A stretch of DNA of 64,000 bases from a virus. A program made the position numbers and the translations under genes. Below are positions 8,894 through 26,357 of the stretch, in pieces (the first letter of the stretch is position 1; every line of letters starts with the position of its first letter). Under the pieces are notes generated by a model. That model had not been told where the DNA came from, ran no database searches, and saw nothing but the letters and a program-made list of their open reading frames with translations. The stretch is from the IMG/VR virus record IMGVR_UViG_3300035698_018653, positions 32,001 to 96,000 of that record; one strand, written 5' to 3'.

Positions 8894-9819
8894 ATTTAGC
8901 GGTAGCCGGTAATCAGTGGATAACGAAGTATTTAATTGATAGGTTAATAGAAGTAAATTTAAAACCTAGCCTTATAATTAATTTAGATTCTAATTTTAAA
9001 AATATAAGTGGCTATTGTGATTTTTCAGACGGTAGCCCATATATATCTATTTATGACGAAATAAAATTGTATAGTCCAAAAAGTTATTCTTTAAAAAACG
9101 ATAAAGAATTATTATCTTGCGATATTGATATACTACTTGTCTTTGGTTGGCAAAGATTAATTCCCGAATGGCTAATAGATCACTGTAAGCTTGGAGCGTT
9201 TGGAGTACATGGATCAATTCATGAATTACCAGACGGAAGAGGTAGAGCTGTGTTTAATTGGACATTAATAAATGAATGCTATGATTATTATCATACTTTT
9301 AAAATGTATATGTTAAAGCTTAATAAAAATATTGATGATGGAGAAATAGTTGACAAAAGAGAATTTGATCTTTTAGAAACAGACAATATTAAAACCCTTT
9401 ATCATAAAAATTGTATCGTATCGAGTGATATGTTTATAGAGAATATCCCAAAGATAATTAATAGTACAGTAAAATACAAAGAACAGCCAAAAAGAAAAAA
9501 AGAAAAGACACTTTATTATGAAAAAAGAACACCGGAACAAAGTCAAATAAATTGGGAAAATTCTGCCCATTCAATACTTTATTTTATAAAAGCATTAACT
9601 GACCCTTACCCTAATGCTTTTAGTTATATAAAGGACAACATAATAAAAATAAAAAAAGCGTCAGGTTTTGATAGCAGAATAAAGTTTAAGGGTAATGTTG
9701 GTGAAGTTGTAGATGTATTTCCAGATGGAGAATTTTTAGTAATAACAGAAGAGTTCCCTATTTATATAGAAGAGTATAGTTATAATGGTAAAATTAAAAA
9801 AGGAGATGTATTAAGGTGA
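8890..9819 (+). CDS. Sugar N-formyltransferase (Fmt/ArnA-like)
   Basis: GWQRLIP, GVHGS..LPDGRGRA, DDGEI, PYPNAF C-terminal domain. Confidence 0.85.
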   Translation: MNLAVAGNQWITKYLIDRLIEVNLKPSLIINLDSNFKNISGYCDFSDGSPYISIYDEIKLYSPKSYSLKNDKELLSCDIDILLVFGWQRLIPEWLIDHCKLGAFGVHGSIHELPDGRGRAVFNWTLINECYDYYHTFKMYMLKLNKNIDDGEIVDKREFDLLETDNIKTLYHKNCIVSSDMFIENIPKIINSTVKYKEQPKRKKEKTLYYEKRTPEQSQINWENSAHSILYFIKALTDPYPNAFSYIKDNIIKIKKASGFDSRIKFKGNVGEVVDVFPDGEFLVITEEFPIYIEEYSYNGKIKKGDVLR

Positions 9820-10745
9820 AAATATTGATTACCGGAAACGCTGGCTTCATCGGAAGTAATATAGCGGATAGATTAATAGAAGAAGTACATAAAGTTGCCG
9901 GAGTAGATAATTTTTTAACTGGCAATATTGAAAATATAAATGAAAAAGTACATCAATATTATTATTCTTTAACAGATGAAAAACAAATGGATATTGTTTT
10001 TAGAAATTTTAAACCGGAAATGGTTTTCCATTGTGCTGCCTCTTATAATGATGCAGATAATTGGAATAGAGATATAGAAACAAATTGTGTTGGAACTTCA
10101 AATATAGTAAAGTGTTGTCAGAAGTACAATGTTAAAAAATTAGTTTATTTCCAAACAGCTTTATGCTATGGGGATTTTATTGAGCAACCAATAACCTTAA
10201 GTCACCCAATCAATCCTACAAGATGTTCTTATGCTATCACTAAAACAACGGCAGAGCAAATAATTGATATGAGCGGAATACCTTGCCTTACTTTTAGAAT
10301 GGCAAATGTTTATGGGCCGAGGCATTTGAGCAGCTGTATTCCCACTTTCTATTTAAAGCTAAAGAATAGAGAAAAAACCATTATTACAAATACCAAAAGA
10401 TCATTCGTATATATTTCAGACTTAGTTGATTTAATCGTTAAAACAATGGACAGTAAGATTACTGGCGTTTATCATTTATCTACATTACAAGAGGTTTCTA
10501 TTAAATTTATATTTGAAGCTATGGCAGAATTGATGAATATAGACATAAGAGATATTGAAGTTAATTATCAAGAGCCAAAAGAAGATAATGTAAAAACAAT
10601 ATTGCTTGATAATTTAAAAACAAAAATGGATTTTTCTGACTGGTACCCTAAAGTTGGCATAATAGATGGGTTAAAAAGATCAATAGAGTGGTATAATAAA
10701 AATAAATTTGATAAAACATTTACTCATTTGAAGTTAGGGAAATAA
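9816..10745 (+). CDS. NAD-dependent epimerase/reductase, Bordetella WbmG/WbmH-like extended SDR
   Basis: ITGNAGFIG, HCAASY, YFQTALCYG, SYAITK, ANVYGPR, C-terminal FTHLK. Confidence 0.8.
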   Translation: MKILITGNAGFIGSNIADRLIEEVHKVAGVDNFLTGNIENINEKVHQYYYSLTDEKQMDIVFRNFKPEMVFHCAASYNDADNWNRDIETNCVGTSNIVKCCQKYNVKKLVYFQTALCYGDFIEQPITLSHPINPTRCSYAITKTTAEQIIDMSGIPCLTFRMANVYGPRHLSSCIPTFYLKLKNREKTIITNTKRSFVYISDLVDLIVKTMDSKITGVYHLSTLQEVSIKFIFEAMAELMNIDIRDIEVNYQEPKEDNVKTILLDNLKTKMDFSDWYPKVGIIDGLKRSIEWYNKNKFDKTFTHLKLGK

Positions 10746-10746
10746 A

Positions 10747-11217
10747 ATGGAAGGCTTATATTTTGGTTTGATGGACAACTTTGTTATGATAATTGGTGCT
10801 TTTTTTGGTTTGAATTTGGAGAGACTTTTTTCAAAAAGAGACAATGGATTGGGGGCGGTTATAGGTGCGGGGATAGGGAATGCTATTTCAGACTTTTTAG
10901 GTGGTGTAGTAGAGGGCAATATGTCACTAGCCTATGGAACTGCACTTGGGTGCATGCTTTGTTTAGCGATTATTCCACTTTTTGTTATTATTATTAGATT
11001 TAAAAAACCATCTGCGATAGCTGAATATAGATTTCAGTTAGATAAAGATTTATTTATAACGGCAAAAGAAAAAAGAATAAAAGGCAATGAAGGAAAAACA
11101 ATAGAGAACACTACAAGATACATTTTGTCAATTTTGTTTTCAAAAATATTGATACATAAAGAAAAGCATGAAAGAGTAAATGTATTAACCCTATGTCAAA
11201 AGGAGAAGATAAAGTGA
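10747..11217 (+). CDS. TMEM65-like membrane protein
   Basis: FGLMDNFVMI and GAGIGNAISDFLGG, three hydrophobic segments. Confidence 0.55.
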   Translation: MEGLYFGLMDNFVMIIGAFFGLNLERLFSKRDNGLGAVIGAGIGNAISDFLGGVVEGNMSLAYGTALGCMLCLAIIPLFVIIIRFKKPSAIAEYRFQLDKDLFITAKEKRIKGNEGKTIENTTRYILSILFSKILIHKEKHERVNVLTLCQKEKIK

Positions 11218-11465
11218 TATACTTGATAGGGTTTGGATGTTTTTTATTGGGGTATATACTTTCATCTATAAGGTGTATTATATGGTATAATAAATTAATT
11301 AATAAACAGGGAAAGCGCTTTGAAGGGGTAATGAAAAAAGTAGTTTGTCCACATATATCGCCAAGAATAGGTGATGGAGAACAATATTGTTGTGACCAAC
11401 AAAAGAAATTAACCGGAACACATCATATGCTTGATGATAATAAATGGATATATTTAATTAATTAA
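11193..11465 (+). CDS. Hypothetical membrane-anchored protein
   Basis: N-terminal hydrophobic helix; overlaps the upstream gene. Confidence 0.45.
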   Translation: MSKGEDKVIYLIGFGCFLLGYILSSIRCIIWYNKLINKQGKRFEGVMKKVVCPHISPRIGDGEQYCCDQQKKLTGTHHMLDDNKWIYLIN

Positions 11466-11477
11466 GGAGAAGATAAA

Positions 11478-11633
11478 ATGAGCAATAACGAAAAAGATTT
11501 AGAAAAGATTTTTGAAGGGCTTTGGAAGGATAAACTGTTTGATAAATGGTTTAATGGTGGAAATACAAAGGCAAAAGATATTTGTAAAAAGTCTTTTATG
11601 TTTGGTGTAAAATTAAAGGAGAAAAAAGAATAA
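11478..11633 (+). CDS. Small hypothetical protein (51 aa, not in ORF track)
   Basis: AAGGAG RBS, ATG at 11478, TAATG coupling to the next gene. Confidence 0.55.
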   Translation: MSNNEKDLEKIFEGLWKDKLFDKWFNGGNTKAKDICKKSFMFGVKLKEKKE

Positions 11634-12601
11634 TGAATTTTGTAAATGTCTCTGACACAATGGTTGGTGTAAAAGACGGAAAGAATATTACAAATTTTCC
11701 AGGCATATATCCGTTCTTTGACGAAAGAAATAAGTTTACTAACATAATTGGTGTCGGGAATAAAAACGGAATAGATAAAAATATTGATTTGCTAAAAATA
11801 AAAAAAGTATTTAAAGGGTGTAAGTTTGTTTTTAATGGTCGTCTTGCTTCTTACCTAATAAAGAACTGGGATTTTATAGTTTCTAATTTTGATGGTATTA
11901 TGGGTGCGGAGTTAAATAAAAATCATCCGAAGTCATTGAATATGGTTCATTCTTCCATGGCACGAAGCATGCCATATAAGGGTTTTTATTGGGAACCAAC
12001 AAACGAAAAAAAGGATTTTGATTTTAGTATCTTATCTAAAATAAATGATTATAAGAATAAGAGATGGGGGCGTTGTTTAAAATTAATTGATATTCTCTGC
12101 ACCTCCAAGCTTAAGGGCATACTTATAACGCAAAGTGGTGATTTAAATAAGGTTTCAGAGCTGAAACAGCACGTTAAGAGCGGATATTTAAAGATATCTA
12201 ATAATATAGACGAAAGAGAGTTTCACAGGCTTCACAACAGGGCTAGAGTCGGTATATTCCCAAATACACTGGATAGCTTTCCCAAGCATATGATAGAGAG
12301 TATACTTTCAAATAAGCCAATAATATTTTCGTCTGATTTAACTATGGGCAAAGAGATTGCGTTAGAGTTTGGTATAAAGCTAAATTTTGACAATAGAAGA
12401 TCTTATAAGAGAGTAAAGACTTTTTTGAGAGAGGGATATAAAGAATATACTACAAATAGGATAAAATATATTTGGAAGTATTCATTTGAAAGCGTATCTG
12501 CTTTTTGGGCTTCTGAAATTAATAGATTATTTAAAACAAAATTTAAAAGAGTTTATATGTTTAATCATTATCAAAGGTTAAAGGAAAATAAATTGATATG
12601 A
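11633..12601 (+). CDS. GT-B (GT4-like) glycosyltransferase
   Basis: C-terminal VGIFPNTLDSFPKHMIESILSNKPII signature. Confidence 0.65.
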   Translation: MNFVNVSDTMVGVKDGKNITNFPGIYPFFDERNKFTNIIGVGNKNGIDKNIDLLKIKKVFKGCKFVFNGRLASYLIKNWDFIVSNFDGIMGAELNKNHPKSLNMVHSSMARSMPYKGFYWEPTNEKKDFDFSILSKINDYKNKRWGRCLKLIDILCTSKLKGILITQSGDLNKVSELKQHVKSGYLKISNNIDEREFHRLHNRARVGIFPNTLDSFPKHMIESILSNKPIIFSSDLTMGKEIALEFGIKLNFDNRRSYKRVKTFLREGYKEYTTNRIKYIWKYSFESVSAFWASEINRLFKTKFKRVYMFNHYQRLKENKLI

Positions 12602-12834
12602 ACAAATTTAAAAAGTGTTGTGATTGCGGAACGTACGAGCATCAAGTATTAATGCCAATTAAGGGTAGGGTTCAGGGAATAGATTTATGTATATCTCATA
12701 TAGTTGCCGCCTTAAATGCCGGTAATGTAATAACAGAAGCTTCTTGTTGCGGACACGGTAAAATAGACGGAAGTATAATTTTAGAGGATGGAAGGGAATT
12801 AGTGATTAAGAAATGGAAAAAAGGAATAAATTAA
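12598..12834 (+). CDS. Small Tyw3-like SCCGH phage protein
   Basis: IDxCI..IV.ALN..G..T.ASCCGH pattern. Confidence 0.5.
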   Translation: MNKFKKCCDCGTYEHQVLMPIKGRVQGIDLCISHIVAALNAGNVITEASCCGHGKIDGSIILEDGRELVIKKWKKGIN

Positions 12835-12838
12835 TATT

Positions 12839-13657
12839 ATGGGAAAGAATTTTTTAGACAAAGATCACACTAAAGATTCGGACATAAAGAATTTTATACA
12901 AGAGAGTAGGATTGAGAATAGAAAGCCTTTCTCCCGTGACCTGATTTCCATTTGTGTATCCATAAAGAACAGAAGTAGATTTAAGATTGGCAAGAAAGAG
13001 TATAAGCCGTTTGTTCATTTTATCCATTCCATTGTTAGGCTCCCAAAGCATTTAATGAATATTGAATTGATCATAGCAGACTTCTTTTCTGATGATTATC
13101 CGTTAAAAGAATGGATTCCTTTCGAGTCTCAACACATTAAGTATAAGATAGTGTCTGTCCCTGGTCCATTTTCGAGAGGAAAGGGGCTAAATGCGGCCGC
13201 TAAGCAGTCTAAAGGCAAGTATCTATTCTTTACCGACGCAGACATGCTATTAAGCACACAGGTGATTGAGAGGGGCTTACATTATGCTAAGAAAAGTAAG
13301 GCTTTCTTTCCCATTGCTTTCCGCCATGTTGATGAGCAATTAAAAGTTGGAAGGTGGTTTCAAAGCGGATTCGGAAATATGTTTTTAAGGAGGAGTCAGT
13401 TTGAGAAACGTGGTGGATATATGGAGCACGATAGGTGGGGGCGAGAGGACTTTTATTTTCATAGACAACTTGTTCAGAAGAGTCAAGTAAAATGTGTAAG
13501 GGAACAAATACAAACCTTCTATCATCAATTCCACCCAGACGATGTTGTTTGGAAAAATAGATTTGTAGAAAAAAATGTTTTCAAAGAAATCCAGGCATCG
13601 TATACTATTAGTAAAGGAAATAAAGAGCATTTTGATAAAAATAGGAGCAAGAAATGA
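12839..13657 (+). CDS. GT-A glycosyltransferase, chondroitin GalNAc-transferase / GT7-C-like
   Basis: FSRGKGLN, FFTDADM (DxD), FFPIAF, GFG, GGY, WGRED. Confidence 0.75.
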   Translation: MGKNFLDKDHTKDSDIKNFIQESRIENRKPFSRDLISICVSIKNRSRFKIGKKEYKPFVHFIHSIVRLPKHLMNIELIIADFFSDDYPLKEWIPFESQHIKYKIVSVPGPFSRGKGLNAAAKQSKGKYLFFTDADMLLSTQVIERGLHYAKKSKAFFPIAFRHVDEQLKVGRWFQSGFGNMFLRRSQFEKRGGYMEHDRWGREDFYFHRQLVQKSQVKCVREQIQTFYHQFHPDDVVWKNRFVEKNVFKEIQASYTISKGNKEHFDKNRSKK

Positions 13658-14187
13658 ATATTAAAAACGACACCAAAAAGATAAGGAAGGCAGTAAGAGA
13701 TAATTTTACATTTAAGTCAGCTATACCGTATGTAAATTTTATGCAGACTATAGGGAAGGTTGCGACAGATAAAATAAGGATAGAGTTAAAGCTAAAGAAT
13801 GAGGGTAATTTAAATATTGGAACGTTGTATTTACATTATAGCATAAAAGACAAGAGTTATATAATAAGTTCAAAATCTGGGTGCTTTACCTATAAACATT
13901 TTAAGGATAAAATTTTTAGTGTTTTAAGTGAGGTAAATCATGGAACAAAAATAGTCAATAAGACAGATAATATTTTTATGGATAATAATTATTTAATTAA
14001 AAGAAGAGAAGCAAAAAAGTTAAATCAATTACAGTTAGCGAAATTATTAGGAAAGAATGTAAAGCAGATACAAAGATATGAAATAAGCGGAAGTGTTCAG
14101 AATCCTTATGGCAGAACATTAAGGGATTTAGCTATAATACTTGATCTTGATTTAAATAAGTTATTTATGTTAGGGAAAAAGAAATGA
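13654..14187 (+). CDS. XRE-family HTH protein (C-terminal HTH)
   Basis: KRREAKKLNQLQLAKLLG...IQRYE...P....L..LA. Confidence 0.75.
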   Translation: MNIKNDTKKIRKAVRDNFTFKSAIPYVNFMQTIGKVATDKIRIELKLKNEGNLNIGTLYLHYSIKDKSYIISSKSGCFTYKHFKDKIFSVLSEVNHGTKIVNKTDNIFMDNNYLIKRREAKKLNQLQLAKLLGKNVKQIQRYEISGSVQNPYGRTLRDLAIILDLDLNKLFMLGKKK

Positions 14188-14807
14188 TAGATAAAATATT
14201 ACTTGCTATATGGATAGGGGTAATTATATTTGCCTGGTGGTATCCACTTAGAAAAAGAAAAAAGAAAGGTGAGTTTCAAGACACAAGCGATTATCAAAAA
14301 TGTATAAAGAAAAATAAAGAAGGAAAATATTATCTTGATAAAAATGCCACAAAGATAATATTTGGTGATTATGATAAACCATTTAAAACTCCTCACTCTA
14401 AAATATGGGATGAAAAACCAATGAGTTTTGATAAATTTTTTAAAGAGCTAAACAATAATATAATAGATCACGGATGGGGAGTTGAGTTTAAATCCATTAA
14501 AGATGGAGAAGAGAAAAAATATATTCAATGTAAAAAATGTGGGTCAAAAAGACAAATAATAAGTACGGTTCCGGCTTTCTGTCTTAATTGTGATAATGGA
14601 TTATATGATCTTCCTTGTGAAGTTGATATAGAAAGTAAAATGGGTGATATATCACAAGCAATGATAGAGGATTTTGAAAAAAGAATATTAGATGGAGAAA
14701 GCGATATAAAGAATCCAAAAGGATTATTTAATAATCGTGAAATGATTGCTAATGCAATTAAAAACTCAAAAGAATTTAAGGAGAGATATGGGAAAGATCA
14801 AGATTAA
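14184..14807 (+). CDS. Hypothetical protein with N-terminal TM and Zn ribbon
   Basis: Hydrophobic N-terminus; CKKC...CLNC. Confidence 0.5.
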   Translation: MIDKILLAIWIGVIIFAWWYPLRKRKKKGEFQDTSDYQKCIKKNKEGKYYLDKNATKIIFGDYDKPFKTPHSKIWDEKPMSFDKFFKELNNNIIDHGWGVEFKSIKDGEEKKYIQCKKCGSKRQIISTVPAFCLNCDNGLYDLPCEVDIESKMGDISQAMIEDFEKRILDGESDIKNPKGLFNNREMIANAIKNSKEFKERYGKDQD

Positions 14808-15162
14808 TGAAGTTATGCTAGAGAGATTAAAGCTTAATCATTCGGTAATAATATCTAAAGACGCTATTGGTCAAGCAATGAAACCAATTTTTAATACATT
14901 ACCTGATCAGGACGCTATAAATATATTATTTAGAAATTACGTTGCTTCCGAAGTTCAAAAGAAAATTCAAATACAATACCCAAAGGATTGGTGGAATGCC
15001 TTTAAAGAAAGATGGTTTCCAAATTGGTTAAAATGGAGATATCCAGTTATATATAGAAAGCATGATTTTTCACCTAAAGTACTTTATCCTTTCATGAAAA
15101 TAAGTTTACCTAACGAAAGGCGGTTTCCAATAGTTATAGAATCAATAGAGGAGAAAGAATAA
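14746..15162 (+). CDS. Hypothetical phage protein
   Basis: PKDWWNAFKERWFP..L...YPV motif; coupled to its neighbours. Confidence 0.5.
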   Translation: MLMQLKTQKNLRRDMGKIKINEVMLERLKLNHSVIISKDAIGQAMKPIFNTLPDQDAINILFRNYVASEVQKKIQIQYPKDWWNAFKERWFPNWLKWRYPVIYRKHDFSPKVLYPFMKISLPNERRFPIVIESIEEKE

Positions 15163-15722
15163 TGACTTGTATAATTGGCTGGATTAAAAACAAAAAGATG
15201 TATATGGGTTGTGATAATATCGGCTCTAATGGGTCTATAGTTATACAAAGGAATGACAGTAAAATATTTACAAGAAATAACGAAATGATTTTTGGATATA
15301 CTTCATCTTATAGAATGGGTCAGCTTTTGAGATATTCGCTTAAGATTCCTTTGCATGATCCCAAGATACCTGATGACGAATATATGAGTACGAAGTTCAT
15401 CGATGAAGTTAGGAATTGCCTAAAAGATGGTGGCTATATGATTAGAGATAATAATGAGGAGTCTGGTGGAACATTTCTTGTTGGATATAAAGGTAAGCTA
15501 TATCTTATCTCTGATGATTTTCAAGTTGGAATTCCTTCTGATGGTTTTTTCTCCGTTGGTTGCGGAATGTATTATGCATTAGGGGCAATGAAAGTTCTTG
15601 TAAAATCAAATAAAAATCCAGTGGCGATAATAGAGGAGGCGTTGTCTATCGCAGAATATTATAGCCCCGGTGTTCGTGGACCATACCAGATAGATCACTT
15701 AGATATAGGGGAGAAAAAATAA
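15162..15722 (+). CDS. HslV / proteasome-beta-like Ntn hydrolase
   Basis: N-terminal MTCIIG (Thr nucleophile), GCD, SKIF, VGCG...ALGA. Confidence 0.8.
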   Translation: MTCIIGWIKNKKMYMGCDNIGSNGSIVIQRNDSKIFTRNNEMIFGYTSSYRMGQLLRYSLKIPLHDPKIPDDEYMSTKFIDEVRNCLKDGGYMIRDNNEESGGTFLVGYKGKLYLISDDFQVGIPSDGFFSVGCGMYYALGAMKVLVKSNKNPVAIIEEALSIAEYYSPGVRGPYQIDHLDIGEKK

Positions 15723-16693
15723 TGAAAAGAGTTTTAGTTACAGGTGCCAGCGGGTTCGTCGGGTCACACTTACTTGACTTACTTCTTGACGATATTGATT
15801 GTTCTGAATGTGAAGTTCACGGTACAATGAGGTACAGGAGCAATCTTGATAATATAAAACATAACATAGGAAAAGATTGCCTTAAGCTGCACACCTGCGA
15901 TTATACAGATCAGAAGTCTGTCGATGAGCTTATTAAGGAGGTTAATCCACATAAGATATTTCACCTGGCAGCTCATTCCTTTGTTCCTGATTCGTTTCAT
16001 ATGCCTCACTATATGCTTGATAATGTAAAGATGACTTTAAATATTTTGGAGTCGGTTAAAACGCACGCTCCAAATTGTAAGGTACATATCGCAGGTAGTT
16101 CCGAGGAGTATGGGATGGTAGAAGCAAGCGAATGCCCTATTGACGAAACGCAACCATTAAGGCCGATGTCACAATATGGTGTCTCTAAAATTGCTTGCGA
16201 GTATCTTGCTTTTCAATATCAAACAACTTATAATATAAAGGTAATAGTAACCAGGAGTTTTAATCATACTGGACCACGCAGAAATTCAAGATTTGTTTGT
16301 AGTCATTTTGCTCGTGAGCTTGCACTTATGAATATGGGCAAGAAAGCGTATTCGATAGAGCATGGCAATCTTGACGCTATACGTGACTATACAGATGTAA
16401 GAGATATAGTAAGGGCGTACTGGGATTTGTCTGAACTTGAAGAAGAAATTAAATATCCAATTAATCTTTGTAGCGGTAAAGGACATAAGATAGAAGAAGT
16501 ATTAAATATGCTTCAGAGTATGTCGGGCATTTCCCCTCAAAGGAATTGGGTTGAGAGCAGGATGAGACCCTCTGATGTTCCGTTGCTTGTTGGTAGTAGT
16601 GAGAAAGCAAAGATGCTTATAGGGTGGAAACCGGAAATTAATTTTAAGAAAACATTAGAAGATCTATATGATTATTGGCTTGAGAACGTATAG
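15722..16693 (+). CDS. GDP-mannose 4,6-dehydratase / GDP-6-deoxy-mannose reductase (Gmd/Rmd family)
   Basis: VTGASGFVG, HLAAHSFV, SSEEYG, YGVSK, FNHTGPRR, GNLDAIRD, RPSD. Confidence 0.9.
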   Translation: MKRVLVTGASGFVGSHLLDLLLDDIDCSECEVHGTMRYRSNLDNIKHNIGKDCLKLHTCDYTDQKSVDELIKEVNPHKIFHLAAHSFVPDSFHMPHYMLDNVKMTLNILESVKTHAPNCKVHIAGSSEEYGMVEASECPIDETQPLRPMSQYGVSKIACEYLAFQYQTTYNIKVIVTRSFNHTGPRRNSRFVCSHFARELALMNMGKKAYSIEHGNLDAIRDYTDVRDIVRAYWDLSELEEEIKYPINLCSGKGHKIEEVLNMLQSMSGISPQRNWVESRMRPSDVPLLVGSSEKAKMLIGWKPEINFKKTLEDLYDYWLENV

Positions 16694-16708
16694 TTAATAA
16701 AATAATTT

Positions 16709-16737
16709 TTCAACTTTTTAAATATAGTGTATATTGT
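16709..16737 (+). promoter_or_regulatory. Putative promoter TTCAAC-N17-TATTGT for the NAD/kinase operon
   Basis: Variant of the recurrent motif (TGTATATTGT), upstream of the AAGGAG RBS of 16777. Confidence 0.5.
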
Positions 16738-16776
16738 TTATAGATAACATTTAACCTTTTAAAAAGGAGAAGCAAG

Positions 16777-17577
16777 ATGAAAGAAAGTACTTGTTTGTTT
16801 GTAATTGACCCTCAAGTTGACTTCTGTGACCCCGTAGGAAACTTATTTGTACCGGGAGCAGACGAAGATATGAGGCGTTTATCGTCAATGGTAATAAATA
16901 ATAAGGGAGAGATAGATGATATTCAGTTGACTCTTGACTCCCATCACTATGTCCACGTGGCGCATCCTTGCTCGTGGATAGACAGTAAAGGAAAGCATCC
17001 TGACCCGTTTACAGTTATTACAGTAGAGGACGTTGAGAAAGGAACGTGGATGGCAACTAATCCTGGGTTCAGAGATAGATATAAGGAATACGTACAGAAG
17101 CTTCAGGACAATAATCGATACGTACTTTGTATCTGGCCTTATCATTGCCTTATTGGTAGCCCCCATGCCGCTATCTCTCCTGATTTTTACGCCTCCATGA
17201 TTTCCTGGGAACGTCTGTATGCTGTAGCCGGAAAGACCACTAAGGGTTCAAATATATTTACCGAGCATTACTCTGCTGTTAAAGCAGACGTACCGGATGA
17301 CGAAGATGTAGGAACTCATTTAAATACCGATGGGCTGATTAATGTTTTAAAGAAACACGATAGTATCCTTATAGCTGGAGAGGCACTGTCACATTGCGTG
17401 GCCTCTACCATTAGAGATATAGCTTCTGAGTTCTCTGACGAGCAGGTTAAGAAGTTTGTCTTGCTTGAGGATGCTTCGTCACCCGTTACCGGTTTTGAGA
17501 AGTTGGGAGAGGATTTTGTAAACGATATGGTTGCGAAAGGAATGAGAATTTCCAAAACAACTGAATATTTTAAATAG
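16777..17577 (+). CDS. pncA: Nicotinamidase (isochorismatase family)
   Basis: IDPQVDF, LDSH, WPYHC, TKG, AGEALSHCV catalytic and metal-binding motifs; next to NAD genes. Confidence 0.85.
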   Translation: MKESTCLFVIDPQVDFCDPVGNLFVPGADEDMRRLSSMVINNKGEIDDIQLTLDSHHYVHVAHPCSWIDSKGKHPDPFTVITVEDVEKGTWMATNPGFRDRYKEYVQKLQDNNRYVLCIWPYHCLIGSPHAAISPDFYASMISWERLYAVAGKTTKGSNIFTEHYSAVKADVPDDEDVGTHLNTDGLINVLKKHDSILIAGEALSHCVASTIRDIASEFSDEQVKKFVLLEDASSPVTGFEKLGEDFVNDMVAKGMRISKTTEYFK

Positions 17578-17581
17578 GAGA

Positions 17582-18352
17582 TTGACCATGAAATTAATGA
17601 ATGTAGATGCAAGCGAAGTGGCGAAGTCGGTACAGGGTTTTGATTATAGCCACATTGAGTTTGATAAGTTAGGCGCTCCAGAATATACCATTGTTGCTAT
17701 CGTTACAGATAAGTCAGGTTCAGTATCGGAATTTAAAACTGAGCTGGAGAATATTAATAAGACTTGCGTGGAGTCCTGCCAGAAATCTCCCAAAGCGGAG
17801 AACTTACTTATTCGGTCCACCGCTTTTAATGGTATTGACGGAATAGAGGAGCTTCACGGCTTTACATTACTTTCTGCTATTGATATTAATCAGTATGACG
17901 GAAGTATTGAGGCGGACGGTATGACTCCGCTCTATGACGCAACTCTTGACGGTATAGATACCGTTCTTGATTATTCAAAGAAGCTGTATGACCGTCAGTA
18001 CTTTTGTAACGCAATAGTATTTGTTATTACCGATGGCATAGAGAACAGTTCGCACTCTGGTTCTGTTTCTAAGATTAAAGATGCCATTAGTAAAATAAAG
18101 AAAGGAGAGATGCTTGAGTCTTTTACTTCTGTACTAATCGGAGTGGGGACGGAAGACGATCAGGTCAAAGATTTCCTGGAGAATTTTAATAAGGAAGCCG
18201 GCTTTGATCAGTATGTAGAAATTACAGAAGCAACCCCACAGAAGCTTGCCAAGCTTGCGAAGTTTGTAAGCCAAAGTGTTTCCAGTACGTCGCAAGCTCT
18301 TGGAACGCAAGGCCCGTCTCAGCCTATTGATATTAAAACCGTAACTATCTAA
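17582..18352 (+). CDS. vWA-domain protein (TerY/YegL-like); likely start ATG 17588
   Basis: MIDAS DKSGS, TPLYDA, ITDG.EN.S. Confidence 0.85.
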   Translation: MTMKLMNVDASEVAKSVQGFDYSHIEFDKLGAPEYTIVAIVTDKSGSVSEFKTELENINKTCVESCQKSPKAENLLIRSTAFNGIDGIEELHGFTLLSAIDINQYDGSIEADGMTPLYDATLDGIDTVLDYSKKLYDRQYFCNAIVFVITDGIENSSHSGSVSKIKDAISKIKKGEMLESFTSVLIGVGTEDDQVKDFLENFNKEAGFDQYVEITEATPQKLAKLAKFVSQSVSSTSQALGTQGPSQPIDIKTVTI

Positions 18353-19152
18353 TGAATTCTAATTCGTATTTTGAGATTGGATCTTCTCACCTGATCTGCC
18401 AGGACTATGCTCTTTCTGGTAGGTCAGGTGATGGGGGTCTTCAGTATGGGATTATATCTGATGGTTGTAGTTCGTCAAAGCATTCGGAAGTGGGCGCTCA
18501 GATATTATCTTTTGTAGCAAAGTATTGCGTAACACTTTTATACCCACGTATGGATTTCTTAGGGGAGACACTAAGAGATTTTATAATTGATAGGGTAGAA
18601 AAGTTAAGAGCGCTTTATGGTTTACCGGAAGAAGCTCTTGACGCAACTTTATTTATTGTTATTTATGCCGATGGTTTCTGGAGTGTATTTGGTTGGGGTG
18701 ACGGTACAGTTATAATTGAAAAACCATTTGGCGTAGTCAATATTGAAATGATAGAGTACAAACAAAACGCACCTTACTATCTTTCTTATTTGAGAAATTG
18801 CGACAGAAAAGAAAGATATATGAAAGAGTTTAATGATAACAATATAATTCAATCTAGTTATGGTACCTTAAGTACTCCCAGTAAAGTTGAAAGACATGTT
18901 GAAGCTCCATTCTTTTATTCGACTGCTGACGACGAAATTAAATCGATAACTGTTTGCTCAGATGGAATATCAAGTTATATAGACGAATTTGCAAATCCTG
19001 TTGGTATTTTTAAGATGGCCCATGAATTTATTGGTTTTAAAAGAACTAACGGAGAATTTGTTAAATCAAATATGATGTTTCTTAAAAGAAAGATGGAGAG
19101 GGAAGGGATTCAGCATTATGACGATATAAGTTGCGCAACGGTAACGTTATGA
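18352..19152 (+). CDS. PP2C-like protein phosphatase (YegK-like)
   Basis: CQD, ISDGCSS, GDG, CSDG, DDIS. Confidence 0.85.
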   Translation: MNSNSYFEIGSSHLICQDYALSGRSGDGGLQYGIISDGCSSSKHSEVGAQILSFVAKYCVTLLYPRMDFLGETLRDFIIDRVEKLRALYGLPEEALDATLFIVIYADGFWSVFGWGDGTVIIEKPFGVVNIEMIEYKQNAPYYLSYLRNCDRKERYMKEFNDNNIIQSSYGTLSTPSKVERHVEAPFFYSTADDEIKSITVCSDGISSYIDEFANPVGIFKMAHEFIGFKRTNGEFVKSNMMFLKRKMEREGIQHYDDISCATVTL

Positions 19153-20846
19153 GCAAATCAATAAAAGTATTCCGTAAGGGTAAGCAACCATTAACGCTTA
19201 CCGAGAATCACTATAAGGGTGGTGGTGGAGAGGGAGCAGTATACAAAAGAGATAGATATGCTTATAAAATATATCATGATCCTTCAAAGATGATTTCGGA
19301 AGATAAAATAAAAGAACTTAAAAAGATAAAGAGAAAGAATGTTTTAAATCCTATTGATATTTTATACAATAGCAAAAATAAGCCTATTGGGTTTATGATG
19401 AATTATGTCAAAGATACAGAATATCTTTGTAAATTATTTGTTAAGAACTTTAAAGATCAAAATGGAATTTCAACATCTAATATAACAAATATAGTAATCG
19501 AGATGGAAAAAACATTATCCGATATACATAAATATAATATGCTGGTAGTTGATTATAATGAAATGAATTTTCTGATAGATAAGAAATTTAGTATTCCTTA
19601 TTATATAGATGTAGATTCGTGGCAGACTAAAGATCATAAAGCAAAAGCTTTGATGGAGACAGTTAGGGATAGGGTAACGAAGTATGGAGAGTTTACCGAG
19701 CTGACTGATTGGTTTTCGTTCGCTGTAGTAACGTTCCAGCTTTATACTGGTCTTCACCCTTATAGGGGCGGCAGACACCCTAATTATAAGCCTAGAGACT
19801 GGTCAAAGAGGATGGATGACAACGTATCGGTATTTAATAAAGATGTAGCGCTTCCAAAATTTATACCAAGCTTTTCTTTTATACCAAAGAATTATCTTGC
19901 ATGGTATCAGGAGATATTTGAAAAGAAAGTAAGAAGCGCACCCCCTTCTGTAGCTGGGACAGTTTCTATGCCTTCGATAGTGGTAAAGGTTTCTGGAAAT
20001 GATATATTTGATATTGAGTTATTAGGAAGCTTTACCGGAAATATAAAAGGCGTTTATTATATCGATGGAAATAGATATATAATGACAAATAAGAATGTAT
20101 ATTTTAATACTGACAATAAAACAATATTTACTTTCGGTAGCGATATAAAAAACATAAGGGTGGGAATGGCTTCTATATTTAATGATACATCTCCCGTTAT
20201 CGCATATATAAAAGATACTCAATGTATTTTTCTTGACCTACGGAGAACTTATCAGACCGCTATATTGGCAGATGATTTTATGGAAGCTAACAATGCAATA
20301 TATACGGTACATGGTGGCAAGCTTATAGAGAATACGTTTGAGAAGTTTGGAAAGATAATTCATAAGACCAAGAATGTATGCAATATATATGAGAGCGCAT
20401 ACAAAGTATTTGACAGTATTGTATCTCAAGATATTATGGGTACATGTTGGCTTGCGATTCCGTATGATATAGGTAAATGTGCTCACGTAAGAATGAAAGA
20501 GCTAGACGGATATAGAATTATTGACGCTAAGTATTGTAATCGAACTGCCGTTATTATCGGAGAGAAAGCAGGACTTTATAATCTCTTTACAATATTCTTT
20601 TCTAAAGATGGTCATTCTGTATATGATATAAAGAAAGATGATGTAAGTTATCATTCAATAAATTTTGTAAGAAAAGATGAAGCTTGTGTACTTATAGACA
20701 ATGAAAAGATGACTTTATTTGTTGATAATATAGGCAGGAAGGAACTAAAAAATCCACCACTTGATCTTTCAATGAAAATGTATTGTGAAAATAGCGACGT
20801 TATGTTTGCTAATGAAAATAAACTTTATAAAGTGAGGATGAAATGA
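19131..20846 (+). CDS. Ser/Thr protein kinase (YegI/TerY-P-like) with beta-rich C-terminal domain; likely start ATG 19149
   Basis: GGGGEGAVY, AYKIY, VVDYNEMN, IDVDS, DWFSFAV, GLHPY. Confidence 0.85.
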   Translation: MRNGNVMSKSIKVFRKGKQPLTLTENHYKGGGGEGAVYKRDRYAYKIYHDPSKMISEDKIKELKKIKRKNVLNPIDILYNSKNKPIGFMMNYVKDTEYLCKLFVKNFKDQNGISTSNITNIVIEMEKTLSDIHKYNMLVVDYNEMNFLIDKKFSIPYYIDVDSWQTKDHKAKALMETVRDRVTKYGEFTELTDWFSFAVVTFQLYTGLHPYRGGRHPNYKPRDWSKRMDDNVSVFNKDVALPKFIPSFSFIPKNYLAWYQEIFEKKVRSAPPSVAGTVSMPSIVVKVSGNDIFDIELLGSFTGNIKGVYYIDGNRYIMTNKNVYFNTDNKTIFTFGSDIKNIRVGMASIFNDTSPVIAYIKDTQCIFLDLRRTYQTAILADDFMEANNAIYTVHGGKLIENTFEKFGKIIHKTKNVCNIYESAYKVFDSIVSQDIMGTCWLAIPYDIGKCAHVRMKELDGYRIIDAKYCNRTAVIIGEKAGLYNLFTIFFSKDGHSVYDIKKDDVSYHSINFVRKDEACVLIDNEKMTLFVDNIGRKELKNPPLDLSMKMYCENSDVMFANENKLYKVRMK

Positions 20847-21583
20847 AAACTAAAGATCAAATAGTTTTTTGGCTTAAACAAATGTTAATTAAAACAAAGA
20901 AAGATGGGTATGTAGTGGGTTTAAGTGGCGGTATTGATTCGGCGGTTGTTGCTTGTTTAATAAAGGAAGCCGTTCCTGAAAATAGCCTTGGAATTATAAT
21001 GCCATGTTTAAGCGATATATTAGATAAAAATTATGCAGTAAAATTAGCAAATCAAATAAATTTAAGGTATTCAATAAAAGATTTAGAAAGTACCTATTAT
21101 CATTTTATAGGAGAAATCGAAGGAGATGGATTAAGGTCCGATGGGTATAATACAATGCTTGGCAATATAAAAGCAAGATTAAGGATGACAACATTATATC
21201 ACACCGCTTCTCTACATAATTATCTTGTGGTTGGCACCTCTAATAAAACAGAAATTTATCTTGGTTATTATACTAAGTATGGAGATGGTGGAGTTGACCT
21301 TGAGCCGATAGGGGATTTATTAAAGAGAGAAGTATATGAACTTGGTAATTATTTTAATATACCTCCCGAAATACAAATAAGAAAACCTTCTGCTGGATTA
21401 TGGGAAGGACAAACAGATGAAGATGAGTTAGGCTTAAGTTATGAGATAATGGATAAGTTTGTAGAGAAACATCCAACAAGAGAATTAAAAGAATGTGATA
21501 GTATAAAGCTTTGTAATTTAAGAATGAATTCAATTCATAAAAGAAATACGCCTGAAATTTGTACCATTAAAAAGGAGTTATAA
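20843..21583 (+). CDS. nadE: NH3-dependent NAD+ synthetase
   Basis: LSGGIDS, NIKARLRM, GYYTKYGDG, PSAGLWEGQTDEDELG; no glutaminase domain. Confidence 0.95.
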   Translation: MKTKDQIVFWLKQMLIKTKKDGYVVGLSGGIDSAVVACLIKEAVPENSLGIIMPCLSDILDKNYAVKLANQINLRYSIKDLESTYYHFIGEIEGDGLRSDGYNTMLGNIKARLRMTTLYHTASLHNYLVVGTSNKTEIYLGYYTKYGDGGVDLEPIGDLLKREVYELGNYFNIPPEIQIRKPSAGLWEGQTDEDELGLSYEIMDKFVEKHPTRELKECDSIKLCNLRMNSIHKRNTPEICTIKKEL

Positions 21584-21584
21584 A

Positions 21585-22703
21585 ATGATTATGCCTGATG
21601 ATCACAAACCGTATATTGATTTATATTTCTTAAGGGCAAAAGAGATACTACAGAAGGAGGGATTAAACCCAATAGTAAGGGCTAAAGTATTTATTAGAAA
21701 AGTAAAAGATGGAAGTAATCAGGTTTATGGAATAAATGAAGCAGTTGATATTATAGATAGATATAGTAATTTATTTAAGAATGGCGGTAAGGTTTATGCT
21801 CTTGCCGAAGGGTCTGAGTATTACTCTAAAGAAACTATTATGATTTTAGAGGGAAGGATACAAGATTTTATTGATTTAGAAACAATGTATTTGGGGGTTA
21901 TTAGCTATAATACAACAATGAAGAATGACAGCAGACATGTTGATATAGATAAAGTAAAAACAAACGCAAAAGAAATAGTTGACGTTGTTGAAGGTAGACC
22001 AATTACGTATATGGGGCCAAGGCACTGGCATTATATTTACGATTATGATATTACAGAAGCCGCTTTAAGTGGTGGATTTACAAATTGTTCTACGTATAAT
22101 GGTTCAAGAGAAAAAGTTGTTGGAACAATTCCCCACGCTCTCGAAAATATTTATGCCTGGAAGTACGGAAAAGAAAATGCAGTATTAACTTCCACACTTG
22201 CTTTTGATAGACATATGAATATAGATATCCCCAGAATAGCGTTAGTTGATTATAACAACCGGGAAATAACAGATTCATTGGTTTGTGCTTATGTTTTAAA
22301 AGATAGACTATCCGGTGTAAGGGTCGACACTTGCGGCGAGAATCACATGGAAGATATTGGCGCTGGCCCTGACGAACTCGCTATTACTAGTGGAGTTTCT
22401 GTAAGGGGAGTATATCAGTTAAGAAAGAAATTAAATGAAGTAGGTTTTAAAAATATTAAAATAACTCTTTCAAGTGGATTTGGAGATATTGAAAAGGTAA
22501 AAAGTTTTATAGAGGCAGAAAAGTATTTTGGGGTTAAGCTATTCGATTCTTTAGGGGTTGGTGGATTGTTCGAATCAAGAATGGCTACCATGGACATATT
22601 TGAAGTGGGGGAAAATCTTAATCGCATGAAATTGATAAGCAAAGAAGGCAGAGAGATAAATGATCCTAGTATTCCTTCAGAATTAAAGGAAGTAAAAATA
22701 TAA
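21585..22703 (+). CDS. pncB: Nicotinate phosphoribosyltransferase (type II PRTase)
   Basis: DLYF, GPRH, GTIPHAL, ALVDYNN, GVRVDT, SSGF. Confidence 0.75.
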   Translation: MIMPDDHKPYIDLYFLRAKEILQKEGLNPIVRAKVFIRKVKDGSNQVYGINEAVDIIDRYSNLFKNGGKVYALAEGSEYYSKETIMILEGRIQDFIDLETMYLGVISYNTTMKNDSRHVDIDKVKTNAKEIVDVVEGRPITYMGPRHWHYIYDYDITEAALSGGFTNCSTYNGSREKVVGTIPHALENIYAWKYGKENAVLTSTLAFDRHMNIDIPRIALVDYNNREITDSLVCAYVLKDRLSGVRVDTCGENHMEDIGAGPDELAITSGVSVRGVYQLRKKLNEVGFKNIKITLSSGFGDIEKVKSFIEAEKYFGVKLFDSLGVGGLFESRMATMDIFEVGENLNRMKLISKEGREINDPSIPSELKEVKI

Positions 22704-22883
22704 GTTTTATGTTACTAAAATATATACATTGTATTATAAATAGAGAATAAAAAATCATGATAGATGACAGAGATTCAAATGAGGATAGTCACGAAGATCA
22801 TAAATCATTTTATAAAAGAATTGGTTTTACTTTTGGTTTAATTTTATTAATTCTATTTATATTAAAAATAACAGGTTGTTAAA

Positions 22884-23291
22884 ATGTCTTTAAAGATTCA
22901 AAGAAAAATAAATAGATGGAATAGAAGTAATGTTAGCTTAAGTGTGCTCTGCCCTTCTGATTTAAAAAAAGATACTCGTATATATAAACCTCAAAAAGCA
23001 ACACTATTAGATAAATGTATTATACCAAAATTAAATTCCTCTTTATTTGATTGGCAGAAGTGGAGAGCAAATTCAATACATTCTCTTGGATTTATAGCAT
23101 GCAGATATAGATTTATAGTTTCTGTTTACGGTAAGTATATATTAAAGAAACATGCTGTTGGATATTGTGAGGGAGAGAATCTTGCATGTCGTCCAAAGCT
23201 TTATGAAATAGCCTTAATGTGTTTTAAAGATGGAGGGGAGTTTTGGTTTCATATGAGAAGCAATGAATTCGAAGAGGTATTTTGTAATTAG
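22884..23291 (+). CDS. Hypothetical phage protein
   Basis: 135-aa ORF with AVGYC...RPK...FWFH. Confidence 0.5.
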   Translation: MSLKIQRKINRWNRSNVSLSVLCPSDLKKDTRIYKPQKATLLDKCIIPKLNSSLFDWQKWRANSIHSLGFIACRYRFIVSVYGKYILKKHAVGYCEGENLACRPKLYEIALMCFKDGGEFWFHMRSNEFEEVFCN

Positions 23292-23304: not shown

Positions 23305-23377
23305 CGGGGTGTAACTCAGCGGTTAGAGTGCCTGTCTGATATACAGGTGGTCGGTGGTTCAATTCCATCCATCCCGA
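23305..23377 (+). tRNA. tRNA-Ile(GAT)
   Basis: Cloverleaf: acceptor CGGGGTG/CATCCCG, anticodon arm CCTGT-CTGATAT-ACAGG, T-loop TTCAATT; CCA not encoded. Confidence 0.9.
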
Positions 23378-23398: not shown

Positions 23399-24370
23399 AT
23401 GAAGTTAGAGGATATAGGGTTTTATACATTATCGGATCAGAGGGCAAAGGGGGCTTCCGAAGTTTCTAACTTAAAGCGCTGTGAGCTTATACTTACAGAT
23501 AGATGTAATTTTAAGTGTACTTATTGCCGAGGCATAAAGAAAGAATATCAGGGTGATCTTGACTTTAAAGAAGCAGAAAGAATTGTAAGTTATTGGCTGG
23601 ATAACGAATTAGAGAATATCCGGTTCAGCGGTGGAGAGCCAACACTGTATCAGGGGCTGAATGAGCTTGTTGAGAGGTGTAAATTCTGTGGGGTTAAGAA
23701 TATAGCCGTGTCCACTAATGGATATTCTGAAATGGACGTATATGAAAGATTAATAAAAGATGGAGTAAATGATTTTTCAATATCTTTAGATGCTTGTTGT
23801 TCTGTTATAGGAAACGAAATAAGTAATACTAAGGGTAGCTGGGAGAAAGTTGTTGATAATATAAGGAAGCTTTCAAAGCTAACATATGTTTCTGTCGGTA
23901 TGGTATTTACAGAAGAGAATATTGACTCTTGTGTTGAGAGTGCATTATTTGCAGATGGTCTTGGTGTTTCCGATATTCGTATTATTCCTTCTGCTCAATA
24001 TAACGAAGCTTTAATAATGCTTGCAAAATTACCAGAGGATATATTAAATAAATATCCTATTTTAAAATACAGAATAAACAATATAAGAAACGGAAGACAC
24101 GTAAGGGGAATACAAGAAAGCGATTGTAATAAATGTTGGTTAATGATGGATGATATGGCTGTAATGAAAGGATTTCATTTTCCATGTATTATATATTTAA
24201 GGGAAGGTGGAGAGCCAATAGGGAAGGTGGGCGAGAATTGCAGGAAAGAAAGAGTCAAATGGATAATGGATAACAACACAAAAGAAAATATTATATGTAA
24301 AAATAATTGCCTTGATGTTTGTATTGATTATAATAATAAAGTTGAATCTTTTAACAAGGAGTTAGTATGA
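23399..24370 (+). CDS. Radical SAM enzyme of unknown substrate
   Basis: CNFKCTYC, FSGGEP, STNG, ISLD, Cys-rich C-terminus (possible auxiliary cluster). Confidence 0.9.
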   Translation: MKLEDIGFYTLSDQRAKGASEVSNLKRCELILTDRCNFKCTYCRGIKKEYQGDLDFKEAERIVSYWLDNELENIRFSGGEPTLYQGLNELVERCKFCGVKNIAVSTNGYSEMDVYERLIKDGVNDFSISLDACCSVIGNEISNTKGSWEKVVDNIRKLSKLTYVSVGMVFTEENIDSCVESALFADGLGVSDIRIIPSAQYNEALIMLAKLPEDILNKYPILKYRINNIRNGRHVRGIQESDCNKCWLMMDDMAVMKGFHFPCIIYLREGGEPIGKVGENCRKERVKWIMDNNTKENIICKNNCLDVCIDYNNKVESFNKELV

Positions 24371-26071: not shown

Positions 26072-26095
26072 TGCTAATGAGAACAATAAATAAAT

Positions 26096-26167
26096 TGTCA
26101 GGTACCCAAGTGGTAAGGGGACTGATTGTTAATCAGTTTGTCGCAAGTTCGAATCTTGCCCTGACAG
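26096..26167 (+). tRNA. tRNA-Asn(GTT)
   Basis: Acceptor TGTCAGG/CCTGACA, anticodon arm ACTGA-TTGTTAA-TCAGT, T-loop TTCGAAT, G73. Confidence 0.9.
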
Positions 26168-26175
26168 TAAAAATA

Positions 26176-26249
26176 ACCCGATTGGTCTATTGGATGGGCG
26201 CATGGCTACGGACTATGTTAGAGGGGTTCGATTCCTCTATCGGGTACCA
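26176..26249 (+). tRNA. tRNA-Arg(ACG)
   Basis: Acceptor ACCCGAT/ATCGGGT, anticodon arm CATGG-CTACGGA-CTATG, T-loop TTCGATT, encoded CCA. Confidence 0.85.
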
Positions 26250-26257
26250 AATTTAAT

Positions 26258-26333
26258 CGTGGTGTGGCGAAGCCTGGTTCAACGCACCGGATTTTGGGTC
26301 CGGCACTCGCAGGTTCGAATCCTGTCACTACCG
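26258..26333 (+). tRNA. tRNA-Gln(TTG), atypical
   Basis: Anticodon arm CCGGA-TTTTGGG-TCCGG, T-arm GCAGG-TTCGAAT-CCTGT, acceptor CGTGGTG/CACTACC with C1:C72 mismatch, G73. Confidence 0.75.
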
Positions 26334-26357
26334 AACAATTTAACAGAGGGGGAATAA

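Follow-up and report, generated by a model that had tools for sequence, protein, structure and literature searches.

A conserved nicotinamidase-vWA-PP2C-kinase gene tetrad joined to candidate NAD+ salvage genes in an uncultured salt-lake phage

The DNA considered here is a window of 64,000 nucleotides, comprising bases 32001-96000 of the 126,906-bp IMG/VR record IMGVR_UViG_3300035698_018653, which originates from an uncultured salt-lake phage (record of ~127 kb, 74% complete according to CheckV). At window positions 16777-22703, six open reading frames (ORFs), termed O1 to O6, follow each other on the plus strand and encode a nicotinamidase-type hydrolase, a vWA protein, a PP2C-type phosphatase, a kinase-like protein with C-terminal β-propeller, the NAD+ synthetase NadE and a putative nicotinate phosphoribosyltransferase (NAPRTase; Table 1). 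An earlier annotation made from the letters of the window (the sequence-only reading) had described these genes as one phage operon joining the deamidated salvage of nicotinamide adenine dinucleotide (NAD+) to a vWA-PP2C-kinase triad, and its assignments of all six ORFs hold as far as fold and catalytic residues are concerned. As a conserved synteny, in contrast, the six-gene operon does not stand, since its exact order recurs in none of 66 distinct viral loci. What is conserved is the tetrad nicotinamidase-vWA-PP2C-kinase (O1 to O4), with NadE and the phosphoribosyltransferase (PRTase) as variable neighbours. Carriage of the operon by a phage is credible and borne out by structural genes in the same record, as the window also encodes a portal (PHROG, E 7e-44), a capsid-like protein (9e-21) and a weak terminase match (8e-7), besides an RtcB. 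In four public DNA runs from salt lakes, short contigs match the locus with 100% identity and span every gene junction, hence the gene arrangement is not an assembly chimera. At the DNA level, relatives in cultured or deposited phages were limited to short NadE matches covering at most 3% of the query, and a megablast search with the structural region returned no match.

The genes are tightly packed. A gap of 4 nt separates O1 from O2 (10 nt with the ATG at 17588 as O2 start), O2 and O3 overlap by 1 nt, O4 and O5 by 4 nt, and 1 nt lies between O5 and O6. The coordinates thus bear out the described run of six genes with junctions of 10 nt or less, except for O3/O4, where the overlap amounts to 22 nt with the TTG start and to 4 nt with the ATG at 19149.

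Table 1 Features of the O1-O6 locus in window coordinates
Feature	Position	Strand	Description
Candidate promoter	16707-16735	+	weak, sigma-70-like; TTTTCA, 17 nt, TATATT; 9/12 positions match
Shine-Dalgarno motif	16764-16769	+	AAGGAG, 7 nt before the O1 start codon, read from sequence
O1	16777-17577	+	nicotinamidase-type amidohydrolase, isochorismatase-like fold, 266 aa; first tetrad gene
O2	17582-18352	+	vWA protein, complete MIDAS motif, conserved Ser-rich C-terminal tail, 256 aa
O3	18352-19152	+	PP2C-type protein phosphatase, 266 aa
O4, N-terminal half	19131-19976	+	Ser/Thr protein-kinase-like domain
O4, C-terminal half	19977-20846	+	β-propeller domain, 289 aa
O5	20843-21583	+	single-domain, ammonia-type NAD+ synthetase NadE, 246 aa
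O6	21585-22703	+	type II PRTase, archaeal NAPRTase-like group, 372 aa; predicted substrate only

Four of the proteins (O1, O2, O4 and O6) fall below curated cut-offs when scored alone and were assigned via orthologue alignments, conserved residues and structure models. Judged by its conserved residues, O1 is a metal-dependent nicotinamidase-type hydrolase. Residues D11, D54, H56, H123, K156 and C207 are invariant in 19 of 19 aligned sequences and align with D8, D51, H53, H94, K122 and C167 of yeast Pnc1 (HMMER, 2h0r, E 1e-15), of which we take D8, K122 and C167 to be the catalytic triad and D51, H53 and H94 to be the metal site. The Asp-Lys-Cys triad of nicotinamidases is accordingly present in O1 as D11, K156 and C207, and the metal site, consisting of Asp-x-His and the His of a WPxHC motif, as D54, H56 and H123. 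A profile built from the 19 sequences gave 13 matches in the PDB; nine of these, including the top five, were deposited as nicotinamidases or pyrazinamidases, with yeast Pnc1 being the best. By itself, O1 reaches only 17.8 bits with Pfam PF00857 (cut-off 27) and 18.1 bits with NCBIfam NF008623 (cut-off 174), and it carries an insertion of roughly 50-80 residues compared to the classical nicotinamidases of 180-215 aa. The family is large (1,529 matches); many members bear the JGI name nicotinamidase-related, and many orthologues have a precomputed PF00857 assignment.

In O2, the residues of the metal-ion-dependent adhesion site (MIDAS), D43, S47, T115 and D151, as well as the serines S230, S232 and S234 of the Ser-rich tail, are invariant across 21 orthologues. 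Pfam VWA_2 matches seven and VWA five of these 21 proteins, the window protein itself having no Pfam match, and an O2 profile finds the vWA domain of ITIH4 with E 0.002. O3 is recognized directly by PP2C_2 (E 1.8e-11, 44.4 bits versus a cut-off of 24), and its metal-binding Asp/Gly motifs D18, D37-G38, G116-D117-G118, D204-G205 and D257-D258 are invariant in 21 sequences. One apparent O2-O3 fusion on a contig of a metagenome-assembled genome (MAG; L113) was considered as Rosetta stone evidence and set aside as a possible artefact of crude ORF calling.

For O4, the Pkinase match (E 8.4e-6, 25.8 bits) lies under the 31.7-bit cut-off. The protein retains the glycine loop, the Lys, the catalytic Asp and Asn and a DFG-like Asp, and residues G32, G33, E34, K46, H133, D141, N143, N146 and D160 are invariant in nine of nine aligned sequences. 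Its last 289 residues were modelled by AlphaFold2 as an all-β structure with a mean predicted local distance difference test score (pLDDT) of 94.4, for which Foldseek retrieved the β-propellers of BamB, PALB2 WD40 and Nup133 (E ~3e-7, template modelling (TM) scores 0.4-0.59). A profile of this propeller yields 1,297 representatives at 50% clustering. In all of the best 150 of these, the propeller forms the C-terminus of the protein; 97 of the 150 comprise at least 540 aa, and the 53 shorter ones possibly represent truncated calls. In the ESM Atlas clusters of O4, the viral share is 52-91%. PADLOC, which we take to include TerY-P models, assigned O4 only to PD-T4-6 with a weak match (E 1e-4), and none of its models matched O2 or O3.

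On sequence evidence, O5 is a single-domain, NH3-dependent NadE, an identity that is solid: it scores 225 bits with TIGR00552 (cut-off 63.65) and 221 bits with PF02540, matches the PHROG 'NAD synthetase' with E 3e-56, and showed no CN_hydrolase (glutaminase) domain in a Pfam/NCBIfam scan. It had been suggested that ammonia released by PncA feeds this glutaminase-less NadE. While this may hold for the window phage, it does not apply to the module in general, as eight of 20 NadE proteins in related loci are of a long form (544-726 aa), and the two long-form proteins scanned both contain the CN_hydrolase domain.

According to its model, O6 is a type II PRTase nearest to solved NAPRTases and, as such, a putative NAPRTase. 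It stays under the equivalog cut-offs (NF006415, 146 versus 243 bits; NF005529, 135 versus 378 bits) and matches PF02749 with 27.8 bits; the NAPRTase domain PF04095 has no match in the whole record. Using the AlphaFold2 model (pLDDT 92) as Foldseek query, eight of the ten best rows are titled NAPRTases, with the P. furiosus 'nicotinate-nucleotide pyrophosphorylase' (2i14, E 1e-21) at the top and the NAPRTases of E. faecalis and T. acidophilum at 2e-17 and 4e-17, respectively, whereas quinolinate phosphoribosyltransferase (QAPRTase) and NAMPT are weaker with E 2e-11 or worse. Relatives of O6 are named 'nicotinate phosphoribosyltransferase' by their sources. An identity of O6 with either of the phage enzymes Namat and Nampt was considered as well and rejected, since a tblastn search of 50,697 phage records with O6 found nothing and Namat is described, in the available text, as a Nampt-like enzyme. 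O6-type PRTases were found only where PncB is absent (4/4 loci); this apparent mutual exclusion was not used as evidence, given an overlap of 0/4 versus ~1.3 expected in too few loci.

The evidence for the tetrad as the conserved unit comes from a search of viral contigs with the kinase alignment, which yielded 141 contigs, of which 80 were kept and merged into 66 distinct groups, loci sharing at least four proteins at ≥95% identity being counted as one. The exact order O1-O2-O3-O4 is observed in 42 of these 66 loci, and O1, O2 and O3 are all present in 50; taken singly, O3 occurs in 63, O4 in 62, O2 in 54 and O1 in 52. Starting from O1 instead, an IMG/VR search gave ten loci, nine of which have O2, O3 and O4 downstream in the same order, with NadE nearby in two and O6 in none. 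The window's combination of NadE with an archaeal-type NAPRTase-like enzyme, in this order, is not found elsewhere in the sample of 66. Between the relatives and the window record, the flanking genes outside the module have almost nothing in common. Each of the four tetrad proteins keeps its set of catalytic and metal-binding residues without variation. Moreover, for 62 loci with plausible lengths of all four proteins (52 viral, 10 from MAGs), the pairwise distances of the tetrad proteins co-vary (Mantel r 0.50-0.70, a value reached by 0/500 permutations), which fits inheritance and transfer of the genes as a unit, although the correlation could come in part from common descent of the carriers. 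The family, at present labelled 'hypothetical', has more than 1,000 members. Two individual loci deserve mention. A 389-kb jumbo-phage contig (L012) encodes two nicotinamidase-type paralogues at 10001-10831 and 15478-16398, one heading the tetrad and the other lying 1 kb past the kinase; in L017, a TnpB/Cas12f-like gene (OrfB_IS605 plus TNB domain, 11697-12854, minus strand) from a family seen in five distinct loci abuts the kinase gene.

The same loci reveal how the tetrad is connected to NAD+ metabolism. A link between the triad and NAD genes in related genomes, on which the sequence-only reading had made its proposal depend, is indeed seen: in 42 of the 66 distinct viral loci, one or more NAD-synthesis genes lie within 10 kb. 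After the tetrad genes themselves, the most frequent neighbour families are PncB (22 loci, in its canonical form with PF04095 and PF17767, and directly adjoining O1 in several loci), Nudix (21), NadE (18) and a NadD-like cytidylyltransferase (16), followed by NAD-dependent DNA ligase (LigA, 9), NADAR (8), O6-type PRTase (4) and PARP (4). The median gap to the tetrad is 1,115 bp for NAD genes and 2,888 bp for other ORFs (one-sided Mann-Whitney p = 6.5e-7, NAD genes being the closer), 80 of 83 NAD genes are co-oriented with the kinase gene, and in 10 of the 66 loci such genes are interleaved with tetrad genes, as in the arrangement O2-PncB-NadE-O3-O4. PncA, PRTase, NadD-like protein and NadE occur together in five loci, and a sixth group has a Nudix-class gene in place of NadD. 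The closest relative of the window locus, L014 (kinase 48% identical), displays at 6258-15520 the unbroken block PncB-O1-O2-O3-O4-NadE-NadD-x-LigA, with x being an ORF of 132 aa; this block amounts to a complete Preiss-Handler set plus an NAD+ consumer.

Copies of the module are also found in cellular genomes. Among species-representative genomes of bacteria and archaea, alignment-based searches with O1 gave at least 558 relatives, and the tetrad is located on bacterial and archaeal MAG contigs, some of which range from 0.8 Mb up to a 6.2-Mb chromosome. A triad gene adjoins O1 in at least 41 and an NAD gene in at least 18 of 80 MAG loci, both counts being lower bounds, as many contigs are short and spurious antisense ORFs displaced real genes in GC-rich DNA (e.g., 'unk392' overlapping O1). 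Five loci contain plain O1-PncB pairs without the triad, four of them on Armatimonadota-type MAG contigs (L118, L121, L141 and L154) and one on a Deferribacterales contig (L155). In a tree of the concatenated tetrad proteins, built from the same 62 loci as the Mantel test, MAG copies appear at several places among the viral ones.

From these observations, a route can be proposed in which O1 would convert nicotinamide to nicotinate, O6 would transfer nicotinate onto phosphoribosyl pyrophosphate (PRPP) to give nicotinate mononucleotide (NaMN), a host NadD would form nicotinate adenine dinucleotide (NaAD), and O5 would finally use ammonia to yield NAD+, steps which together would make up the Preiss-Handler route. 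Dependence on the host NadD follows from the record, which is devoid of an adenylyltransferase: PF01467 (NadD/NadM) gave no match in its full length, with the control search being positive in 14 of 14 genomes. The lack of NadD and NadM that had been noted for the window therefore extends to the whole record, and the partial deamidating route from nicotinamide to NaMN and from NaAD to NAD+ is supported with the adenylyltransferase step missing. Profiles of PncB, NadD, Nudix, LigA, NADAR and PARP found no match in the record either, nor did those of Prs-like proteins (PF13793) and PnuC (PF04973). The vWA protein, phosphatase and kinase would most likely act together as a reversible phosphorylation switch specific to the nicotinamidase step, with the propeller of O4 as a possible sensor or docking domain. 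The Ser-rich tail of O2 is a candidate phospho-acceptor, and its phosphoserine could fill the protein's own MIDAS site or that of a partner. That the switch acts at the entry step is suggested by the constant association of the triad with O1 and not with the later enzymes. The phage might need this to supply the infection with NAD+ in general, or to restore NAD+ that a defence system has cleaved.

With a probability of roughly 55%, we favour the reading that a widespread module of four genes is present here in a phage, next to two more enzymes of NAD+ salvage, and that its triad may serve as a switch on the nicotinamidase step. Several points weigh against it. The record contains no adenylyltransferase and is only 74% complete; the window's six-gene order is not shared by any other locus, and four of its six proteins score under curated family cut-offs by themselves. 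No NAD-synthesis gene lies within 10 kb in 24 of the 66 viral loci, and in 16 the tetrad stands alone, which implies that the tetrad needs no phage-encoded downstream enzymes nearby. The Nudix class is heterogeneous, being composed of NadM-Nudix fusions, plain Nudix proteins and one NrtR, and the co-variation of the tetrad proteins may carry the share of common descent stated above. Finally, no RNA run containing the window stretch is listed. What remains unusual is that the first enzyme of a route is kept together with a dedicated kinase, phosphatase and vWA protein across many otherwise unrelated large phages and some cellular genomes.

Among the alternatives, the one with a serious, though less than even, chance is that the module simply raises NAD+ for replication, e.g., for NAD-dependent ligases and sugar-nucleotide enzymes, and is unrelated to defence. 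Jumbo phages encoding pncB-nadD-nadE together with NAD-consuming enzymes (PMC11662467, main text) point in this direction, as does the up-regulation of the host pncA-pncB1-nadE operon upon infection by jumbo phage PA5oct, described in the available part of PMC7318152. The LigA, NADAR and PARP genes counted above near the tetrad and the presence of the same module in bacteria are equally in line with it. However, the window record itself gave no LigA, PARP or NADAR match in the profile search, and a mere supply function leaves a dedicated kinase, phosphatase and vWA protein beside the first enzyme unexplained. If the link should turn out to be regulatory housekeeping only, it would still provide a useful annotation rule for the 'hypothetical' family.

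Rather unlikely, yet compatible with the favoured reading of a switched salvage module, is the view that the operon constitutes a fourth phage pathway of NAD+ reconstitution, starting from nicotinamide released by defence systems, with the triad sensing the attack and switching the pathway on. Phages do rebuild NAD+ to escape TIR/SIR2-type defences, as reported for NARP1-3 in the accessible text of three studies (10.1101/2024.02.11.579819; PMC13464706; PMC12774641). The predicted substrate of O1 is just the defence product nicotinamide, and the route would be a distinct one in view of the NARP1-3 gene sets being absent from the record. A further hint comes from an NrtR-type regulator (NUDIX plus NrtR winged-helix domain) at the end of one viral module copy (L016, 5788-6531), the sole viral locus in which it was confirmed. 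On the other hand, the route costs PRPP and several ATP and needs the host NadD, the neighbouring NAD-dependent ligase, PARP and NADAR genes fit a general NAD+ economy just as well, and counter-defence makes no sense on the chromosome-sized bacterial contigs where the module also occurs. Removal of nicotinamide could, moreover, relieve the product inhibition of NADases, which speaks against rebuilding as a counter-defence. In its boldest form, according to which the tetrad would be a sensor-effector that detects NAD+ cleavage and switches on a fourth, deamidating reconstitution pathway defeating TIR/SIR2-type immunity, the proposal is improbable; if true, a phospho-switch of the TerY-P type would for the first time have a metabolic output assigned to it.

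It is improbable that the genes are only coincidental neighbours, i.e., that an independent TerY-P-like cassette for defence, superinfection exclusion or host takeover happens to share an accessory island with NAD genes. Such triads can act as stand-alone anti-phage systems (PMC11090510, available text, citing Gao et al. 2020), and both the loci with the tetrad but no other NAD gene nearby and the weak PD-T4-6 match of the kinase would agree with this. Yet O1 accompanies the triad in 52 of 66 loci and in fixed order in 42, NAD genes are interleaved with triad genes and keep a shorter distance to the tetrad than the remaining ORFs, PADLOC recognizes neither O2 nor O3, and the C-terminal domain of the kinase is unlike that described for TerY-P in the text at hand. 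Least likely of all is a different chemistry, with O1 acting on another pyridine or amide (e.g., a signalling nucleotide derivative) and/or O6 on nicotinamide or quinolinate in a route other than Preiss-Handler, for although the insertion and low PncA equivalog score of O1 (18 versus 174 bits), the failure of O6 with PF04095 and both NAPRTase equivalogs and the type II PRTase fold common to QAPRTase and NAMPT would allow it, all six Pnc1-equivalent catalytic and metal residues are invariant in O1, canonical PncB is the commonest tetrad partner (22/66), the O6-type enzyme occurs only where PncB is absent (in loci too few for significance), and NadE is not known to act on any dinucleotide but the deamidated one.

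With respect to expression, the six genes had been placed behind one candidate promoter. The gene set stands, but the single promoter is no more than a weak candidate, as the site matches at nine of 12 positions and promoter-like sites in the region are not above shuffled sequences (25 found versus 33.6 +/- 5.7 expected). No terminator-like site was found 3' of 22703, terminator calls in general not being above chance, so transcription may run on past O6. A small ORF of ~41 codons (22758-22883), with an acidic first and a hydrophobic second half, occupies most of the interval from O6 to the ORF that follows. Just 3' of the operon follow a 135-aa ORF (22884-23291) and a radical SAM gene (23399-24370) with homologues of 39-53% identity in viral loci. 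In L072 (8354-9635), the homologues of both are placed between the genes of the PP2C and the kinase, while the radical SAM homologue of L053 (13625-14620) lies 2 kb past the kinase; another radical SAM family recurs in seven distinct loci. Four tRNA genes (Ile-GAT, Asn-GTT, Arg-ACG and Gln-TTG; 23305-23377 and 26095-26334) flank the radical SAM and RtcB genes of the window. Upstream of the operon, a 186-aa ORF (15162-15722) shows a weak proteasome-subunit-like match (E 7e-4, under the cut-off) and has a 40%-identical homologue in the viral locus L068.

In terms of known systems, the enzyme set of the window is the same as that of NrtR-regulated bacterial NAD salvage operons. The viral relative L016 encodes a protein with NUDIX and NrtR_WHD domains beside the module, whereas the window record is devoid of a Nudix or NrtR gene. 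Also related are the Preiss-Handler clusters of jumbo phages ('NAD-jumbo phages'), which include salt-pond phages and combine pncB-nadD-nadE with NAD-consuming enzymes, with a phage pncA also being mentioned (PMC11662467, main text). Phage carriage of an NAD route, in which the sequence-only reading had seen the novelty, has thus already been published. Three of the four enzyme types, and their clustering, are shared with these phages, as far as the main text describes them. In contrast, the window record has no NadD, its PRTase is of the archaeal type and not a PF04095 PncB, and its nicotinamidase belongs to a longer subfamily recurrently paired with vWA, PP2C and kinase. The words kinase, phosphatase, vWA and von Willebrand do not occur in the main text of PMC11662467 (its supplements being outside the scope), and a literature search found no paper in which a nicotinamidase of prokaryotes or phages is combined with a vWA/PP2C/kinase set, supplementary gene tables likewise being outside the scope. 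Hence, the tetrad is apparently undescribed in print.

Depletion of NAD+ and its reversal form a central front of the conflict between phages and bacteria, and three rebuilding pathways of phages have been described since 2024, to which the deamidating route would, if true, add a further one. NARP1 consists of Adps and Namat, NARP2 of Nampt and Nmnat and NARP3 of PnuC and NadR (10.1101/2024.02.11.579819; PMC13464706; PMC12774641, available text). Like these, the window operon encodes enzymes able in principle to rebuild NAD+ from breakdown products. The record contains no gene set of NARP1, NARP2 or NARP3 (PF13793, PF04973, PF04095 and PF01467 with zero matches each), and the window route, different from the three pathways as they are described in the available text, would run via deamidated intermediates and need NadE. 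The terms nicotinate, NadE, PncA and deamid- are absent from the main text of 10.1101/2024.02.11.579819 (supplements being outside the scope).

For triads of the TerY-P type, the function is itself still hypothetical, and a fixed partnership with one assayable enzyme would offer a concrete, testable output for such a switch. E. coli YegL-PphC-YegI is a triad of this type. In general, TerY-P triads comprise a vWA protein, a PP2C and a kinase that carries a fused zinc ribbon or, in a defence variant, a fused OB-fold, and they have been linked to tellurite resistance, restriction systems and stand-alone anti-phage defence (PMC11090510, available text). The classification of the window triad as TerY-P type, as made in the sequence-only reading, stands with regard to layout: a MIDAS-bearing vWA protein, a PP2C and a Ser/Thr kinase are encoded together by tightly coupled genes, both enzymes look catalytically competent, and the order O2-O3-O4 recurs. 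It does not extend to the PADLOC defence profiles, with PD-T4-6 as the only match of the kinase, nor to the kinase C-terminus, which in the window is a β-propeller in place of the zinc ribbon or OB-fold described in the accessible text of PMC11090510. Measured against the same text, the window triad also differs in its partners, being coupled to a metabolic enzyme and genes of NAD+ salvage instead of tellurite-resistance or restriction genes.

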